9,140 nucleotides of DNA, from IMG/VR virus record IMGVR_UViG_2698536549_000008; one strand, written 5' to 3'. Shown in pieces: positions 1,120 to 8,312 of this stretch (the first letter of the stretch is position 1; the number at the start of each line of letters is the position of its first letter). This stretch comes from a virus. Taxonomy: Duplodnaviria; Heunggongvirae; Uroviricota; Caudoviricetes. Under the pieces are notes generated by a model that was not told where the DNA came from, did no database searches, and saw only the letters and a program-made list of their open reading frames with translations. A program made the position numbers and the translations under genes.

Positions 1120-1668
1120 ATGAATGTTAATAAAAAGAAGCTTGCTGAAATCTTTAATGTCGATATACGCACTATTGATCGCTGGCAAACTCAGGGGCTC
1201 CCTCAGATATCTGGTGGAGGAAAAGGTGTTGAGGTCATCTTTGATTCTGCGAAGGCGATCGAATGGTATGCTCAGCGCGAAGCTGATATTGAAAATGAAA
1301 AACTCCGTAAAGAGGTCGAGGATTTGAGGGCGGCCAGCGAATCAGACCTTCAGCCCGGCACCATTGATTACGAACGTTACCGACTGACGAAGGCACAGGC
1401 AGATGCACAGGAACTGAAAAATGCCCGCGACAGTGGGCAGGTCATTGATACAGGGTTTTGCCTTTTTGCTCTGGGAAGACTGGCACAGGAGATCTCTGCC
1501 ATTCTTGACTCCATTCCATTGTCCATGCAGAGACAGTTTCCGGCACTGACGCCCGCTATGCTTGATTTCCTGAAAACCGATATAGCAAAGGCGGCAAACC
1601 GATGCGCATCAACGGCAGAGAAGTTACCGGAGATGCTGGATGAATACCTCAGAGAAGCAGCTAAATAA
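1120..1668 (+). CDS. Nu1: Terminase small subunit (gpNu1-like)
   Basis: 182 aa; [41 protein letters not shown]... aligns with lambda gpNu1 (MEVNKKQLADIFGASIRTIQNWQEQGMPVLRGGGKGNEVLY...), including the N-terminal HTH and the GGGKG motif; shallow SD-like AAGGA about 10 nt upstream. Confidence 0.93.
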
Positions 1669-3568
1669 CTTTGCTGTTGTTTGTGGAGTGGCACTTCGTG
1701 GGCTTTTACGCCCACTGCCTGTAACCACCGTTGAATGGGCCGATCAAAATTATTATTTGCCCCCGGAGTCCTCTTATCTTGCTGGGCGGTGGAAGACGTT
1801 GCCCTTTCAGGTGGCAATAATGAACTGCATGGGTAATGACCGGATCCGCACAATTAATCTTATAAAATCAGCTCGAGTCGGTTACACCAAAATGCTGATG
1901 GGCGTTATTGGTTACTTTATTGAGCATAAAAACCGTAACAGTCTTCTGTTTCAGCCTACGGATTCTGCCGCTGAAGATTTTATGAAGTCTCATGTGGAGT
2001 CAACATTACGGGATGTTCCCTGTCTGAAAATTCTTTCCCCCTGGCTGGGGCGTAAGCACCGGGATAACACACTGACATTAAAAAGATTCACGTCCCGTGT
2101 GGGGTTCTGGTGCCTGGGTGGTGCTGCCGCCAAAAACTACCGTGAAAAATCAGTGGATGTGGTCTGCTATGACGAACTTTCCTCATTCGAGCCGGATGTC
2201 GAAAAAGAGGGCTCGCCAACCCTGCTGGGGGATAAGCGTATTGAGGGCTCGGTATGGCCAAAATCTATTCGCGGCTCGACGCCTAAAATAAAAGGCACCT
2301 GCCAGATCGAAAAAGCGGCCAACGAGTCGGCGCATTTCATGCGTTTTTATGTGCCCTGCCCGCACTGTGGGGAGGAGCAGTATCTGAAATTTGGCGATGA
2401 ATCCACGCCTTTTGGCCTTAAATGGGAGAAGGACAGCCCCGAAAGCGTTTTCTATCTCTGTGAACATCATGGCTGCGTGATCCATCAGTCTGAGCTTGAC
2501 CAGAGCAACGGGCGGTGGATCTGTGAAAACACGGGCATGTGGACCCGTGACGGCCTGACGTTTTTCAGCGCTGCGGGTAATGAAATTCCGCCGCCGCGCT
2601 CCATCACTTTCCATATCTGGACGGCGTACAGTCCGTTCACCACCTGGGTACAGATAGTCTATGACTGGCTGGATGCACTGAAAGATCCCAACGGCCTGAA
2701 AACTTTTGTGAACACCACGCTGGGCGAGACCTGGGAAGAGGCCGTGGGCGAAAAACTCGATCACCAGGTGCTGATGGATAAGGTCGTGCATTACACGGCA
2801 GCGGTGCCTGCCCGGGTGGTTTATCTGACGGCGGGCATTGACTCGCAGCGTAACCGTTTTGAGATGTATGTCTGGGGATGGGCTCCGGGAGAGGAAGCCT
2901 TTCTGGTGGATAAAATCATCATTATGGGGCGTCCTGATGAGGAAGAGACGCTGTTACGTGTGGATGCGGCGATCAACAAAAAATACCGCCATGCAGACGG
3001 TACCGAAATGACCATTTCCCGTGTCTGCTGGGACACCGGGGGGATCGATGGTGAAATTGTTTATCAGAGATCAAAAAAACACGGTGTTTTCCGGGTGCTG
3101 CCGGTAAAAGGCGCATCTGTCTATGGCAAGCCGGTGATCACCATGCCAAAAAACCGCAATCAGCGGGGCGTGTATCTGTGTGAAGTGGGGACAGACACCG
3201 CAAAAGAAATTCTCTATGCCCGTATGAAAGCCGATCCCACGCCTGCGGATGAAGCCACGTCGTATGCCATCCGTTTTCCTGATGATCCGGAGATTTTTTC
3301 GCAGACAGAGGCGCAGCAACTGGTGGCGGAAGAACTGGTGGAGAAGTGGGAAAAAGGAAAGATGCGTCTGCTGTGGGATAACAAAAAGCGGCGTAACGAA
3401 GCGCTGGACTGCCTGGTGTATGCCTACGCGGCATTACGTGTGTCCGTGCAACGCTGGCAGCTTGATCTGGCTGTACTGGCAAAATCCCGGGAAGAAGAGA
3501 CGACCCGGCCAACCCTGAAAGAACTGGCAGCGAAGCTGTCCGGAGGAGTGAATGGTTACAGTCGCTGA
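1640..3568 (+). CDS. A: Terminase large subunit (gpA-like; packaging ATPase and cos endonuclease)
   Basis: 642 aa, collinear with lambda gpA (641 aa) over the full length (e.g. [20 protein letters not shown] at residues 76-84 = nt 1865-1891, [37 protein letters not shown]); start overlaps the Nu1 3' end by 29 nt as in lambda. Confidence 0.95.
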
Positions 3569-3758
3569 ACTGCAGGCGCTGCGTCAGGCGCGCCTTGATT
3601 TATTAACCGGTAAACGGGTGGTGTCTGTCCAGAAAGATGGTCGCAGAATTGAATATACGGCGGCTTCTCTGGATGAGCTTAACCGTGCGATCAATGATGC
3701 GGAGTCGGTACTGGGGACAACCCGACGTCGCCGTCGTCCGCTGGGAGTGAGGTTATGA
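3552..3758 (+). CDS. W: Head-tail joining / head completion protein (gpW-like)
   Basis: 68 aa, same length as lambda gpW; LLTGKRVVSVQKDGRRIEYTAASLDEL matches lambda [32 protein letters not shown] SD at 3542-3546; start overlaps the A stop. Confidence 0.9.
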   Translation: MVTVAELQALRQARLDLLTGKRVVSVQKDGRRIEYTAASLDELNRAINDAESVLGTTRRRRRPLGVRL

Positions 3759-5347
3759 AACGAACGCCTGTCCTGATTGATGTGAACGGCGTTCCGCTTC
3801 GGGAGAGCCTCAGCTACCACGGGGGCGGTGCAGGATTTGGCGGGCAAATGGCGGAGTGGTTGCCACCGGCGCAGAGTGCCGATGCGGCCCTGCTGCCCGC
3901 GTTGCGTCTGGGGAATGCCCGTGCAGATGATCTGGTGCGCAATAACGGGATAGCGGCTAATGCGGTGGCCCTGCATAAGGATCATATTGTCGGGCATATG
4001 TTTCTTATCAGCTACCGTCCGAACTGGCGCTGGCTGGGGATGCGGGAGACTGCGGCAAAAAGTTTTGTCGATGAGGTGGAGGCGGCCTGGTCGGAATACG
4101 CAGAAGGGATGTTTGGCGAGATCGACGTGGAAGGGAAACGCACGTTCACGGAATTTATCCGTGAAGGTGTGGGCGTTCATGCCTTTAACGGCGAAATCTT
4201 TGTGCAGCCGGTCTGGGATACGGAGAGCACGCAGCTGTTTCGTACGCGTTTTAAAGCCGTGAGTCCGAAACGGGTGGACACGCCAGGGCACGGTATGGGG
4301 AACCGCTTTCTGCGGGCCGGTGTGGAGGTTGATCGATATGGCCGTGCCGTTGCGTACCATATCTGTGAGGATGATTTTCCGTTCTCTGGTAGTGGACGAT
4401 GGGAACGGATCCCGCGTGAACTTCCCACCGGGCGTCCGGCCATGCTGCATATTTTCGAGCCGGTGGAGGACTGGCAGACCCGTGGGGCCAATCAGTTTTA
4501 CAGCGTCATGGAACGGCTGAAGATGCTGGATTCCCTGCAGGCAACACAGCTTCAGTCGGCCATTGTTAAAGCCATGTATGCAGCGACGATTGAAAGTGAA
4601 CTTGATACCGAAAAGGCCTTTGAATATATCGCGGGGGCACCGCAGGGTCAGCAGGATAATCCGCTTATTAATATTCTGGAGAAGTTCTCCAGCTGGTATG
4701 ACACGAATCATGTGACGCTGGGCGGTGTCAAAATTCCGCACCTTTTCCCCGGTGATGATCTGAAACTGCAGACCGCGCAGGATTCAGACAATGGATTTTC
4801 GGCGCTTGAACAGGCGCTGCTGCGGTATATCGCCGCCGGTCTTGGCGTTTCCTACGAACAGTTGTCCCGTGATTACTCGAAGGTCAGTTATTCAAGTGCC
4901 CGCGCCTCTGCCAATGAGTCGTGGCGCTATTTTATGGGACGACGAAAATTTATTGCGGCCCGGCTGGCCACGCAGATGTTTTCCTGCTGGCTGGAAGAGG
5001 CACTTCTTCGGGGGATTATCCGTCCGCCACGGGCACGTTTTGATTTTTATCAGGCGCGATCAGCCTGGTCACGGGCCGAGTGGATTGGTGCCGGAAGAAT
5101 GGCCATTGACGGGCTCAAGGAGGTCCAGGAATCGGTGATGCGTATTGATTCCGGACTGAGCACGTATGAGAAAGAGCTGGCGCTGATGGGTGAGGATTAT
5201 CAGGACATTTTCCGCCAGCAGGTCAGGGAATCCGCAGAGCGGGAAAAAGCCGGACTCTCACGTCCGGTGTGGATAGCGCAGGCGTATCAGCAGCAGATAG
5301 CGGAGAGCCGCAGGCCGGAAGAGGAGACAACACCACGTGAGACGTAA
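3755..5347 (+). CDS. B: Portal protein (gpB-like)
   Basis: 530 aa; long collinear blocks shared with lambda gpB (YHGGGAGFGGQ, GNARADDLVRNNG, FEPVEDWQTRGAN, QLQSAIVKAMYAATIESELDT, LLRYIAAGLGVSYEQLSR, GRMAIDGLKEVQE); ATGA start/stop overlap with W. Confidence 0.95.
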   Translation: MKRTPVLIDVNGVPLRESLSYHGGGAGFGGQMAEWLPPAQSADAALLPALRLGNARADDLVRNNGIAANAVALHKDHIVGHMFLISYRPNWRWLGMRETAAKSFVDEVEAAWSEYAEGMFGEIDVEGKRTFTEFIREGVGVHAFNGEIFVQPVWDTESTQLFRTRFKAVSPKRVDTPGHGMGNRFLRAGVEVDRYGRAVAYHICEDDFPFSGSGRWERIPRELPTGRPAMLHIFEPVEDWQTRGANQFYSVMERLKMLDSLQATQLQSAIVKAMYAATIESELDTEKAFEYIAGAPQGQQDNPLINILEKFSSWYDTNHVTLGGVKIPHLFPGDDLKLQTAQDSDNGFSALEQALLRYIAAGLGVSYEQLSRDYSKVSYSSARASANESWRYFMGRRKFIAARLATQMFSCWLEEALLRGIIRPPRARFDFYQARSAWSRAEWIGAGRMAIDGLKEVQESVMRIDSGLSTYEKELALMGEDYQDIFRQQVRESAEREKAGLSRPVWIAQAYQQQIAESRRPEEETTPRET

Positions 5348-6842
5348 TCTTTCACACATTATTGCCGCAGCATTCAATGAACCGCTGCTTCTGGAGCCCG
5401 CCTATGCGCGGGTTTTCTTTTGCGCGCTCGGGCGCGAGATGGGGGCAGCAAGTCTTTCGTTACCACAACAGCAGGTACAGCTTGATGCTCCCGGGATGCT
5501 GGCTGAAACGGACGAGTACATGGCCGGAGGTAAACGACCGGCCCGTGTTTACCGGGTGGTGAACGGTATTGCGGTACTGCCGGTGACCGGCACGCTGGTG
5601 CACCGGCTGGGTGGTATGCGGCCATTTTCCGGAATGACAGGCTATGACGGCATTGTTGCCTGTCTTCAGCAGGCAATGGCGGACACCTCTGTCCGGGGCG
5701 TACTGCTGGATATTGACAGTCCGGGCGGGCAGGCCGCCGGTGCGTTTGACTGCGCTGACATGATTTACCGCCTCCGGCAGCAGAAGCCGGTCTGGGCACT
5801 GTGTAATGACACGGCCTGTTCTGCGGCCATGCTGCTGGCGTCGGCCTGCTCCCGACGGCTGGTTACCCAGACATCCCGTATCGGCTCCATTGGCGTGATG
5901 ATGGGCCATGTCAGCTATGCCGGTCATCTGGCGCAGGCCGGAGTGGATATCACGCTGATTTATGCCGGGGCGCATAAGGTGGATGGCAATCAGTTTGAAG
6001 CCTTACCGGCAGAGGTGTGTCAGGACATGCAGCAGCGTATTGATGCGGCGCACCGGATGTTTGCCGAAAAAGTGGCGATGTATACGGGGCTGTCTGTGGA
6101 AGCTGTCACGGGGACAGAGGCTGCCGTTTTTGAAGGTCAGTCCGGTATTGAGGCCGGGCTGGCGGATGAGTTAATCAATGCGTCGGATGCCATCAGCGTG
6201 ATGGCTGCGGCGCTGAACACACATGATACAGGAGGCACTATGCCGCAATTAACTGCAACGGAAGCCGCCGCGCAGGAGAACCAGCGAGTGATGGGGATCC
6301 TGACGTGTCAGGAAGCGAAAGGACGTGAACAGCTTGCCACGATGCTGGCAGGACAACAGGGCATGAGCGTTGAACAGGCCCGGGCGATTCTGGCTGCGGC
6401 AGCACCACAGCAGCCGGTGGCATCCGCGCAGAGTGAAGCCGATCGCATTATGGCGTGTGAAGAAGCTAAAGGTCGTGAACAACTGGCGGCAACGCTGGCG
6501 GCGATGCCGGATATGACGGTGGAAAAAGCCCGCCCGATCCTGGCTGCTTCACCGCAGGCGGATGCCGGACCCTCACTCCGTGATCAGATTATGGCTCTGG
6601 ATGAGGCAAAAGGGGCTGAGGCGCAGGCTGAAAAACTGGCGGCCTGCCCGGGAATGACCGTGGAGAACGCCCGGGCTGTGCTGGCTGCGGGATCAGGTAA
6701 GGCAGAACCGGTTTCTGCATCCACAACCGCCCTGTTTGAACATTTCATGGCGAACCATTCACCGGCAGCGGTACAGGGTGGTGTGCCACAGACGTCAGCA
6801 GACGGTGATGCGGACGTGAAAATGCTCATGGCCATGCCATGA
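5337..6842 (+). CDS. C: Head maturation protease (gpC-like, S49/ClpP-fold peptidase) with C-terminal scaffold domain
   Basis: 501 aa; N-terminal two-thirds collinear with lambda gpC (AFNEPLLLEPAYARVFFCAL, NGIAVLPVTGTLV, GAFDCADMI, SRRLVTQTSRIGSIGVMM, ITLIYAGAHKVDGN, GLADELINASDAI). Apparent GTG start at 5337 with GAGGAG 10 nt upstream, overlapping the B stop; start codon choice is uncertain. About 60 aa longer than lambda gpC. Confidence 0.9.
   Translation: MRRNLSHIIAAAFNEPLLLEPAYARVFFCALGREMGAASLSLPQQQVQLDAPGMLAETDEYMAGGKRPARVYRVVNGIAVLPVTGTLVHRLGGMRPFSGMTGYDGIVACLQQAMADTSVRGVLLDIDSPGGQAAGAFDCADMIYRLRQQKPVWALCNDTACSAAMLLASACSRRLVTQTSRIGSIGVMMGHVSYAGHLAQAGVDITLIYAGAHKVDGNQFEALPAEVCQDMQQRIDAAHRMFAEKVAMYTGLSVEAVTGTEAAVFEGQSGIEAGLADELINASDAISVMAAALNTHDTGGTMPQLTATEAAAQENQRVMGILTCQEAKGREQLATMLAGQQGMSVEQARAILAAAAPQQPVASAQSEADRIMACEEAKGREQLAATLAAMPDMTVEKARPILAASPQADAGPSLRDQIMALDEAKGAEAQAEKLAACPGMTVENARAVLAAGSGKAEPVSASTTALFEHFMANHSPAAVQGGVPQTSADGDADVKMLMAMP
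6240..6842 (+). CDS. Nu3: Scaffolding protein (gpNu3-like), in-frame internal start within C
   Basis: ATG at 6240 is in frame with C and preceded by AGGAGG (6230-6235), the strongest SD in the window; gives a 200-aa product sharing the C stop, matching the lambda C/Nu3 nested arrangement. Confidence 0.55.
   Translation: MPQLTATEAAAQENQRVMGILTCQEAKGREQLATMLAGQQGMSVEQARAILAAAAPQQPVASAQSEADRIMACEEAKGREQLAATLAAMPDMTVEKARPILAASPQADAGPSLRDQIMALDEAKGAEAQAEKLAACPGMTVENARAVLAAGSGKAEPVSASTTALFEHFMANHSPAAVQGGVPQTSADGDADVKMLMAMP
6285..6700 (+). repeat. Three tandem degenerate protein-level repeats (~40 codons each) in the C/Nu3 scaffold region
   Basis: Units RVMGILTCQEAKGREQLATMLAGQQGMSVEQARAILAAAAP (from 6285), RIMACEEAKGREQLAATLAAMPDMTVEKARPILAASP (from 6444) and QIMALDEAKGAEAQAEKLAACPGMTVENARAVLAAG (from 6585); lambda has one copy of this motif as recalled (SRIMGILNCEEAHGREEQARVLAETPGMTVKTARRILAAAP). 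The DNA copies differ at many synonymous positions. Confidence 0.6.
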
Positions 6843-6878: not shown

Positions 6879-7226
6879 ATGGTGACGAAAACCATCACTG
6901 AACAACGTGCAGAAGTACGTATTTTTGCCGGTAATGATCCGGCTCATACCGCCACAGGCAGCAGCGGGATTTCTCAGGCAACACCGGCACTGACGCCCCT
7001 GATGCTGGATGAAGCCAGCGGGAAACTGGTGGTCTGGGACGGACAGAAAGCCGGTAGTGCGGTTGGCATACTGGTACTGCCGCTTGAAGGCACAGAGACG
7101 GTGCTGACGTATTACAAGTCGGGGACCTTTGCGACGGAGGCAGTCCGCTGGCCTGAAAGTGTGGATGAACACAAAAAGGCCAACGCCTTTGTCGGCACAG
7201 CCCTGAGTCACGCGGCGCTGCCGTAA
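6879..7226 (+). CDS. D: Head decoration protein (gpD-like)
   Basis: 115 aa; DPAHTATG, TPLMLDEASGKLVVWDG, AVGIL, YYKSGTF match lambda gpD motifs (DPAHTATA, TPLMLDTSSRKLVAWDG, AVGIL, FYKSGTF); AGGAGG SD at 6864-6869. Confidence 0.92.
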   Translation: MVTKTITEQRAEVRIFAGNDPAHTATGSSGISQATPALTPLMLDEASGKLVVWDGQKAGSAVGILVLPLEGTETVLTYYKSGTFATEAVRWPESVDEHKKANAFVGTALSHAALP

Positions 7227-7283: not shown

Positions 7284-8312
7284 ATGGGATTGTTTACGAC
7301 CCGCCAGTTACTCGGTTATACCGAACAAAAAGTGAAATTTCGTGCGCTGTTTCTGGAGCTGTTTTTCCGCCGTACGGTGAATTTCCACACCGAAGAGGTG
7401 ATGCTGGATAAAATTACCGGAAAAACGCCGGTGGCAGCCTATGTCTCCCCGGTTGTTGAAGGAAAAGTGCTGCGTCATCGTGGTGGTGAAACCCGCGTGT
7501 TGCGTCCGGGCTACGTCAAGCCGAAACACGAATTTAATTACCAGCAGGCGGTGGAGCGCCTTCCCGGTGAAGATCCGGCGCAGCTGAACGACCCGGCCTA
7601 CCGTCGTCTGCGTATCATCACCGATAACCTCAAACAGGAAGAGCACGCCATTGTCCAGGTGGAAGAAATGCAGGCGGTGAATGCCGTTCTGTATGGCAAA
7701 TACACCATGGAAGGGGAGCAGTTTGATACTGTCGAGGTTGATTTCGGGCGCTCTGAAGGAAATAACATTGAGCAGGCTGACGGTAAAAAATGGTCTGAGC
7801 AGGACCGTGATACGTTTGATCCGACGCATGATATTGACCTCTACTGCGATCAGGCCAGCGGTCTTGTGAATATCGCCATTATGGACGGTACGGTCTGGCG
7901 TCTGCTGAATGGCTTTAAGCTGTTCCGCGAAAAACTGGATACCCGTCGCGGCTCAAATTCACAACTCGAAACGGCAGTGAAAGACCTGGGGGCGGTGGTG
8001 TCTTTCAAGGGGTATTACGGTGATCTGGCCATTGTGGTGGCGAAAACATCTTATGTGGCAGAGGACGGTACCGAAAAACGTTATCTGCCGGAGGGCACGC
8101 TGGTCCTGGGAAATACGGCTGCTGATGGCATCCGTTGCTATGGTGCCATTCAGGATGCGCAGGCGTTGTCCGAAGGTGTGGTGGCCTCTTCCCGTTATCC
8201 GAAACACTGGCTGACCGTTGGCGATCCGGCCCGTGAATTCACCATGACGCAGTCCGCTCCGCTGATGGTGCTGCCGGATCCGGATGAGTTTGTGGTGGTT
8301 CAGGTGAAATAA
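7284..8312 (+). CDS. E: Major capsid protein (gpE-like)
   Basis: 342 aa vs 341 for lambda gpE; collinear throughout (PGYVKPKHE, QVEEMQAVNAVLYGKYTMEGE, KLDTRRGSNSQLETAVKDLG, TGDPAREFTMTQSAPLM, PDEFV); SD-like AAAGGA upstream. Confidence 0.95.
   Translation: MGLFTTRQLLGYTEQKVKFRALFLELFFRRTVNFHTEEVMLDKITGKTPVAAYVSPVVEGKVLRHRGGETRVLRPGYVKPKHEFNYQQAVERLPGEDPAQLNDPAYRRLRIITDNLKQEEHAIVQVEEMQAVNAVLYGKYTMEGEQFDTVEVDFGRSEGNNIEQADGKKWSEQDRDTFDPTHDIDLYCDQASGLVNIAIMDGTVWRLLNGFKLFREKLDTRRGSNSQLETAVKDLGAVVSFKGYYGDLAIVVAKTSYVAEDGTEKRYLPEGTLVLGNTAADGIRCYGAIQDAQALSEGVVASSRYPKHWLTVGDPAREFTMTQSAPLMVLPDPDEFVVVQVK

Follow-up and report, generated by a model that had tools for sequence, protein, structure and literature searches.

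The DNA analysed here, IMG/VR record IMGVR_UViG_2698536549_000008 (9,140 nucleotides (nt); hereafter the window), carries a homologue of the lambda C protease gene, with a putative Nu3-type scaffold gene nested in frame within it. In the tail of the 501-amino-acid (aa) C homologue lie three copies of one unit of approx. 45 residues, and the question that this locus raises is what a capsid scaffold does with three such units when the lambda capsid, which follows the same design, is built with one. The three copies can be recognized with confidence and correspond to repeats already annotated in phage 21; their codons point to an old triplication kept under selection at the protein level. Their function is probably that of contact modules between the scaffold and its partners, a reading that is weighed below against its alternatives.

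Three repeat units in a protease and its putative nested scaffold

The product of the C homologue, gp5, is composed of an S49 serine-protease domain, a linker, the three repeat units, and a C-terminal tail, and the relevant features of the window are as follows.

5337..6842, plus strand: gene 5, lambda C homologue, 501 aa (open reading frame (ORF) map, Pfam, PHROG, and match to phage 21)
6240..6842, plus strand: predicted gene 6, Nu3 scaffold homologue, 200 aa, nested in frame (ribosome-binding site and phage 21 annotation)
6270..6410, plus strand: repeat unit R1, AQENQRVMGILTCQEAKGREQLATMLAGQQGMSVEQARAILAAAAPQ, aa 312-358 (hidden Markov model (HMM) of the unit, independent E-value (i-E) 2e-27)
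6429..6560, plus strand: repeat unit R2, QSEADRIMACEEAKGREQLAATLAAMPDMTVEKARPILAASPQA, aa 365-408 (unit HMM, i-E 2e-29)
6570..6704, plus strand: repeat unit R3, PSLRDQIMALDEAKGAEAQAEKLAACPGMTVENARAVLAAGSGKA, aa 412-456 (unit HMM, i-E 7e-29)
6705..6839, plus strand: C-terminal tail, aa 457-501, with the helix TTALFEHFMANH and a conserved LMxxP end

Searched with an HMM derived from R1-R3, the C homologue yields exactly three strong matches, and the EAKG motif recurs at residues 326, 376, and 423. Self-BLASTP recovered nothing beyond the trivial match of the protein to itself over its entire length; the comparison was thus made by aligning segment against segment, which gave Smith-Waterman scores of 108, 84, and 103 (z = 17.2, 11.9, and 15.9), while shuffled segments (n = 2000) scored 25-26 +/- 5 and in no case reached the observed score. 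A preliminary description of this DNA had placed a triplicated motif at 6285-6700; the self-comparison confirms it as a significant internal repeat, and the units at 6270-6704 match these limits. The consensus pattern proposed there was essentially right as well, the one difference being that R1 carries three extra residues (GIL) after its first helix, which R2 and R3 lack. Invariant across the copies are E-A-K-G, L-A, M-[ST]-V-E-x-A-[RK], and L-A-A. No Pfam or NCBIfam model covers the repeat part; several PHROG profiles (scaffold, capsid assembly, and head protease) match it three times.

Domain content and position place the gene in the lambda C family. Pfam Peptidase_S49 (PF01343) covers aa 146-293 (E 6.9e-34; 117.5 bits versus a cut-off of 24.9), PHROG 53 'head maturation protease' is matched with an E-value of 9e-226, and the gene lies between the portal gene B and genes D and E, as expected of a lambda C homologue. 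For gene 6, the candidate start read from the sequence alone is the ATG at 6240, which is preceded, 5 nt upstream, by AGGAGG (6230-6235). The same start is annotated for gene 6 or the scaffolding protein in both phage 21 records (M81255.1 and OL657228.1), and it aligns with lambda Met309, where a strong Shine-Dalgarno sequence is likewise found. With gene 6 starting at 6240, all three units would be common to gp5 (501 aa) and gp6 (200 aa). Lambda Nu3 is known to bind the major capsid protein and to be present in proheads but absent from mature heads (PMC3224144); by homology, gene 6 of the prophage would encode a scaffold of this kind, transient and removed ahead of DNA packaging.

The alignment also bears on the annotation of lambda itself. 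In the RefSeq record (NC_001416), nu3 is annotated from Met239 of C (position 2333; 201 aa), whereas a start at Met309 (position 2543), which follows the Shine-Dalgarno sequence AGGAGGG, would yield a product of 131 aa. Because both phage 21 gene 6 and the window start align at Met309, and because the residue aligned to Met239 is Ile in the window, the homologous scaffold start is probably Met309 rather than Met239.

The triplication is already known in the form of the Tri boxes of phage 21. The 1993 entry M81255.1 ("Bacteriophage 21 head gene operon") lists, within gene 6, three features of the type repeat_region, which are called "Tri1 box", "Tri box", and "Tri3 box" and are all annotated as "function unknown; putative"; the view of the original authors is taken here from these GenBank feature notes. 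Literature searches for text on the boxes, within the library consulted, gave no result. Since the 1506-nt alignment between the window gene and phage 21 is gap-free, the boxes can be mapped directly onto the three units (coordinates of the phage 21 locus, L001, offset +2336).

R1: Tri1 box, 3971-4074, corresponding to window 6307-6410
R2: Tri box, 4111-4221, corresponding to window 6447-6557
R3: Tri3 box, 4252-4365, corresponding to window 6588-6701

Gene 5/6 of phage 21 resembles that of the window in its length (1506 nt), with 95.5% identity in DNA and 479 of 501 amino acids identical, and in having the nested start and the three units at equal positions. The figure comes from Megablast of the C gene against the phage collection, in which both phage 21 records (M81255.1 and OL657228.1) were matched at 95.5% over the full length and without gaps, and related phages were matched too. 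The two gp5 proteins differ by 22 substitutions, 7 of which fall within the repeat region (aa 364-444), and in origin: phage 21 is a laboratory phage, whereas the window stems from a prophage carried in an E. coli genome. As a near-identical copy of an annotated phage 21 gene, the window gene thus has low discovery value in itself. What is new, if anything, may be descriptive, namely the series of one to four copies, the orthology of units by position, and the recombinant forms.

One further stretch was considered as an additional unit. MYTGLSVEAV, at aa 243-256 (window 6063-6104), resembles the GM[ST]VExA loop-helix of the unit, and a weak match of the unit HMM at this place inside the S49 domain occurs in four of the five C proteins tested, all but that of lambda. 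The matches are not significant (i-E 0.06-4), the candidate was dropped, and the likeness is probably due to chance.

Age of the triplication and copy number among relatives

Nei-Gojobori counts over a 34-codon core of the units give a proportion of synonymous differences (pS) between copies of 0.61-0.68 and a proportion of nonsynonymous differences (pN) of 0.18-0.32, with 60-70% identity in DNA; pN/pS is about 0.27-0.5 and the corresponding rate ratio dN/dS 0.12-0.28. Synonymous sites are thus near saturation. At the DNA level, a repeat can be detected only for R1 and R2 (97 nt, 71% identity, spacing 150), and Tandem Repeats Finder reports none, as expected for copies so old. The excess of synonymous over nonsynonymous change indicates purifying selection on the units at all three positions. 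These results agree with the preliminary description, in which the DNA copies were held to be synonymously diverged, the duplication old, and the selection exerted at the protein level.

The order of the units is preserved across genera. Among themselves, the window units are 43-60% alike, and their closest relatives elsewhere are the following.

R1 of the window: R1 of Trabulsiella (84%), Gifsy-1 (76%), and Providencia (76%)
R2 of the window: R2 of Gifsy-1 (76%), Providencia (71%), and Trabulsiella (64%)
R3 of the window: R3 of Trabulsiella (68%) and Gifsy-1 (63%)

Because the best counterpart of every unit in other genera occupies the corresponding position, the sequences indicate that the triplication is older than the separation of these prophage lineages in Escherichia, Salmonella, Trabulsiella, and Providencia and that the three positions have evolved separately since. 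The gpC homologue of Salmonella Gifsy-1 (STM2605) has three units in the same order. Compared with the window, however, the Gifsy-1 scaffold part (6240-6842 in the window) is only 57.5% identical versus 88% for E and 82% for B, so that the scaffold evolves faster than its presumed partners. Identity to the single lambda unit is 62% for R1, 60% for R2, and 45% for R3. In particular, R1, which is marginally the closest, retains the ENxR[VI]MGILxC head of the lambda unit, and R2 and R3 do not; by this comparison R1 is the lambda-like copy. The triplication presumably arose from a single-copy ancestor.

Lambda shares with the window the head operon order Nu1-A-W-B-C/Nu3-D-E-FI-FII, the nested in-frame scaffold start, and the position of the unit after the protease domain, and the proteins of the two are approx. 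60% identical (B 61%, C protease 59%, D 60%, and E 62%). The lambda C protein (439 aa) differs in having one unit, at aa 356-400, and a longer linker before it; the phi80 C protein (447 aa) also has one unit, and the Gifsy-1 homologue (498 aa) has three. The single lambda copy had been correctly stated in the preliminary description, and with one unit in both lambda and phi80, three copies are not simply the ancestral state of the family. The further proposal, that the repeats account for the additional length of about 60 aa, holds in direction but not as a simple sum: two more units with their linkers add approx. 98 aa, the lambda linker between protease domain and unit is approx. 36-40 aa longer, and the net difference is +62 aa.

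Copy numbers were counted on fetched loci and in a representative protein library; a homologous-protein search with gp6 returned mostly fragments and partial sequences, which served for the folding alignment and not for the counts. Of 80 IMG/VR loci, found by the protease domain only, 67 have three units, 11 have four, and one has two, while one is cut by a contig end. The 11 four-unit loci form one lineage, with proteases 72-74% identical to that of the window. In a GTDB survey with one genome per species, three-unit genes were found in Escherichia, Shigella, Trabulsiella guamensis, and Providencia alcalifaciens, and one-unit genes of the lambda or phi80 type at approx. 40 other loci, with Kluyvera, Enterobacter, Serratia, Erwinia, Klebsiella, Citrobacter, Cedecea, and an Aeromonadaceae metagenome-assembled genome as hosts. 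Searched against 1.84 billion representative proteins, the unit profile gave 518 matches at E <= 1e-3; re-scoring of the best 144 gave 131 proteins with a single unit, 7 with two, and 6 with three. The S49 domain is present in all eight of the long matches tested for it. One copy is the common state and presumably the ancestral one, and three are presumably derived in the phage-21/Gifsy clade. Phage 21, at least 67 IMG/VR contigs, and more than 1200 complete E. coli genomes all carry the three-unit gene, which excludes an assembly artefact. In accord with the preliminary description, the copies are not a product of slippage either.

The genes with two and four units indicate that copy number is still changing. 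In the only two-unit IMG/VR gene (L053), the DNA changes from R1-type to R2-type within the shared octamer CGTGAACA, and exactly 50 codons are lost; the position of the junction and the exact loss point to recombination between R1 and R2, which left a hybrid unit. Identity among R2-R4 of the four-unit genes amounts to 81-95% for protein and 81-82% for DNA, and these copies are accordingly younger or homogenized. Two distant stand-alone proteins (P0133 and P0204) carry two units each, which suggests duplications independent of the phage 21 triplication.

Three other sequences are naturally shortened forms of the three-unit gene. The gene at L011 (IMG/VR) ends early, inside R3, after 451 codons, that at L029 (IMG/VR) has a 19-codon deletion inside R2, and in P0095 a deletion extends from the end of the protease domain into R2. 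These may belong to defective or decaying prophages.

Predicted structure and possible function of the units

The gp6 model obtained with AlphaFold2 from an alignment of 25 sequences has a mean predicted local distance difference test score (pLDDT) of 68.6 and a predicted template modelling score (pTM) of 0.28. Three helices are predicted in each unit, at pLDDT 76-82: the first, which is short, leads through a turn at EAKG(R)E into the second, and a loop at PGM[TS] connects the second with the third. The linkers between the units are rich in Pro, Ala, and Gln, and together with most of the C-terminal tail they remain below pLDDT 65. R1 folded alone gives a helix-loop-helix with a core pLDDT of about 90, in which the first two helices are merged, and this leaves doubt about the break at EAKG. 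The low pTM is in keeping with modules that are independent and flexibly linked but does not prove them. In the tail, gp6 residues 161-172 are predicted, at low pLDDT, to form a helix; Phe166 and Met170 hardly vary, and LMxxP at the very end is conserved as well (alignment A2).

These features, together with the conservation of the unit, which exceeds that of any other piece of the scaffold part in the C/Nu3 family, lead us to favor, with moderate confidence, a role of the unit as the protein-protein contact module of the scaffold. The unit would contact the major capsid protein (gp7/E) on its inner face, mediate self-association of the scaffold, or both, and the protease, which carries the same units, would be co-assembled into the prohead through the same contacts. 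The units would act as separate helical modules on low-confidence linkers, like beads on a string, and three per chain would give a higher valency or avidity of contact than the single unit of lambda. It is known that lambda Nu3 is a scaffold that interacts with E, C, and itself and is needed for the incorporation of the portal protein B (PMC3224144). Moreover, in P22 and phi29 the capsid protein is bound by a helix-turn-helix of the scaffold (PMC11922011), and a comparable hairpin is predicted in each of the window units. P22 gp8 and phi29 gp7 are functional analogues only: they are transient scaffolds with a capsid-binding helix-loop-helix and conserved charged residues (PMC11922011), but they have no detectable sequence or fold relationship to the window units, contain one element per chain, and, unlike the window scaffold, are neither fused to nor nested in a protease gene. 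That multivalency alters the stoichiometry of capsid binding, as the preliminary description suggested, is plausible.

Several points weigh against a contact role of the units. A capsid of this architecture does not depend on three units, because the lambda capsid, alike in design, is assembled with one. The alignments behind the full-length and single-unit models are shallow (25 and 3 sequences, respectively), and the two models disagree on the break of the first helix at EAKG. PDB sequence searches gave no match, and fold searches against solved structures returned only generic helical hairpins. In addition, the conserved extreme C-terminal tail could be the capsid-binding element instead. 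The nested protease/scaffold pair UL26/UL26.5 of herpesviruses is organized in this way, with the last approx. 25 residues binding the capsid protein, and the tail that follows the window repeats has its own conserved helix and LMxxP end. The units would then serve otherwise, e.g., in oligomerization, portal recruitment, or spacing.

In its full form, the latter possibility, which is the main alternative, holds that the units are self-association or portal-recruiting modules, whereas the tail binds the capsid, in which case the triplication would change the geometry of the scaffold oligomer or the incorporation of the portal and not the stoichiometry of capsid binding. Self-association of lambda Nu3 and its requirement for B incorporation (PMC3224144) speak for such a division of labor; we nevertheless consider it unlikely, as it is the unit that is best conserved within the scaffold part and as the capsid-binding element of P22 and phi29 is a helix-turn-helix (PMC11922011). 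It is also conceivable that the extra copies are neutral passengers, whose only effect is a spacer or linker length that a largely disordered scaffold tolerates and which persist simply because they do no harm. One unit suffices for lambda, relatives have anything from 1 to 4 copies, and lambda gpNu3 is reportedly intrinsically disordered, going by the title of Medina et al. 2011. However, pN between the copies is well below pS, each position has its own ortholog across genera, and residues are invariant in all copies, whereas neutral sequence so old would have decayed; passengers of this kind are therefore improbable.

The possibility that the repeat acts at the level of DNA or RNA, as CII-type sites or RNA structure, with the protein repeat being secondary, arises from OL657228.1, in which the minus strand of gene 6 carries two annotated TTGYN6TTGY 'CII binding sites'. 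The window has both of them (6245-6258 and 6479-6492). The pattern occurs three times in the window versus 1.7 expected, however, and 42 of 200 shuffles reach three, so that it stands at chance frequency and a DNA-level role through CII sites was rejected; it is found, moreover, in only one of the three units. The DNA differences between copies are mostly synonymous, and Tandem Repeats Finder detects no repeat in the DNA. A primary role in nucleic acid thus has next to no probability.

Returning to the units as contact modules, we tentatively suggest that their number (1, 2, 3, or 4) is an evolvable valency setting of the C/Nu3 scaffold, adjusted by recombination between copies, and that the phage-21/Gifsy clade might have fixed three non-interchangeable units with contacts of their own. 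This idea is doubtful at present; if it is true, unit number should measurably change the kinetics or fidelity of prohead assembly or how much protease is packaged. No account of tuning of scaffold-unit copy number in the C/Nu3 family turned up in literature searches, and to our knowledge it has not been described there; a literature search for cryo-electron microscopy of Nu3 in the prohead likewise gave nothing relevant. The natural series of one-, two-, three-, and four-unit scaffolds provides material for testing scaffold valency in the assembly of lambda-type T=7 capsids, and it could also support a domain definition for the unit.

The head operon and unusual matches

According to the ORF map, the window is a lambdoid late-gene block, the head operon of a phage-21-type E. 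coli prophage, and its genes follow one another as in the annotations of phage 21, lambda, and Gifsy-1. Apart from gene 5/6, the following genes are present (ORF map, except where stated).

268-834: putative Rz-like spanin gene at the left end of the window (translation only)
1120-1668: Nu1
1640-3568: A
3552-3758: W
3755-5347: portal B
6879-7226: D/shp
7284-8312: E
After E: FI- and FII-like genes

Within ORF 268-834, positions 508-606 consist of 99 N, a masked stretch or an assembly gap, and the translation across them is therefore meaningless. The whole window matches an E. coli chromosome at up to 99.4%; among 5426 complete E. coli genomes, 4836 match it at least in part, and 1234 cover 80% or more of its length. 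The window thus represents a very common phage-21-type prophage head operon.

Several matches collected in the course of the copy-number survey are unusual. A group of lambda-type C genes (L100, L102, L103, L105-L107, L109, L110, L113, and others) all have 494 codons and near-identical match statistics, and they sit on short or approx. 48-kb low-coverage contigs in assemblies labelled Shewanella, Pseudomonas, Kitasatospora, Oceanobacillus, Leeuwenhoekiella, Akkermansia, Chromatium, and others. They have the appearance of lambda DNA that entered these assemblies as a contaminant or spike-in. In the 258-aa protein P0210, a Gifsy-1-type C tail, Ala, Thr, Pro, and Ser are systematically replaced by Val, Ile or Met, Leu, and Phe, respectively, a pattern that would result if C-to-T converted DNA (bisulfite-type reads) had gone through assembly and translation. 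Finally, three proteins are chimeras: P0042 joins a three-unit scaffold tail to an unrelated N-terminus, possibly methyltransferase-like (DPPY motif), P0127 combines a lambda-type C with tail protein L, and P0144 combines a tape-measure N-terminus with C. All three are probably deletions in defective prophages or misassemblies.

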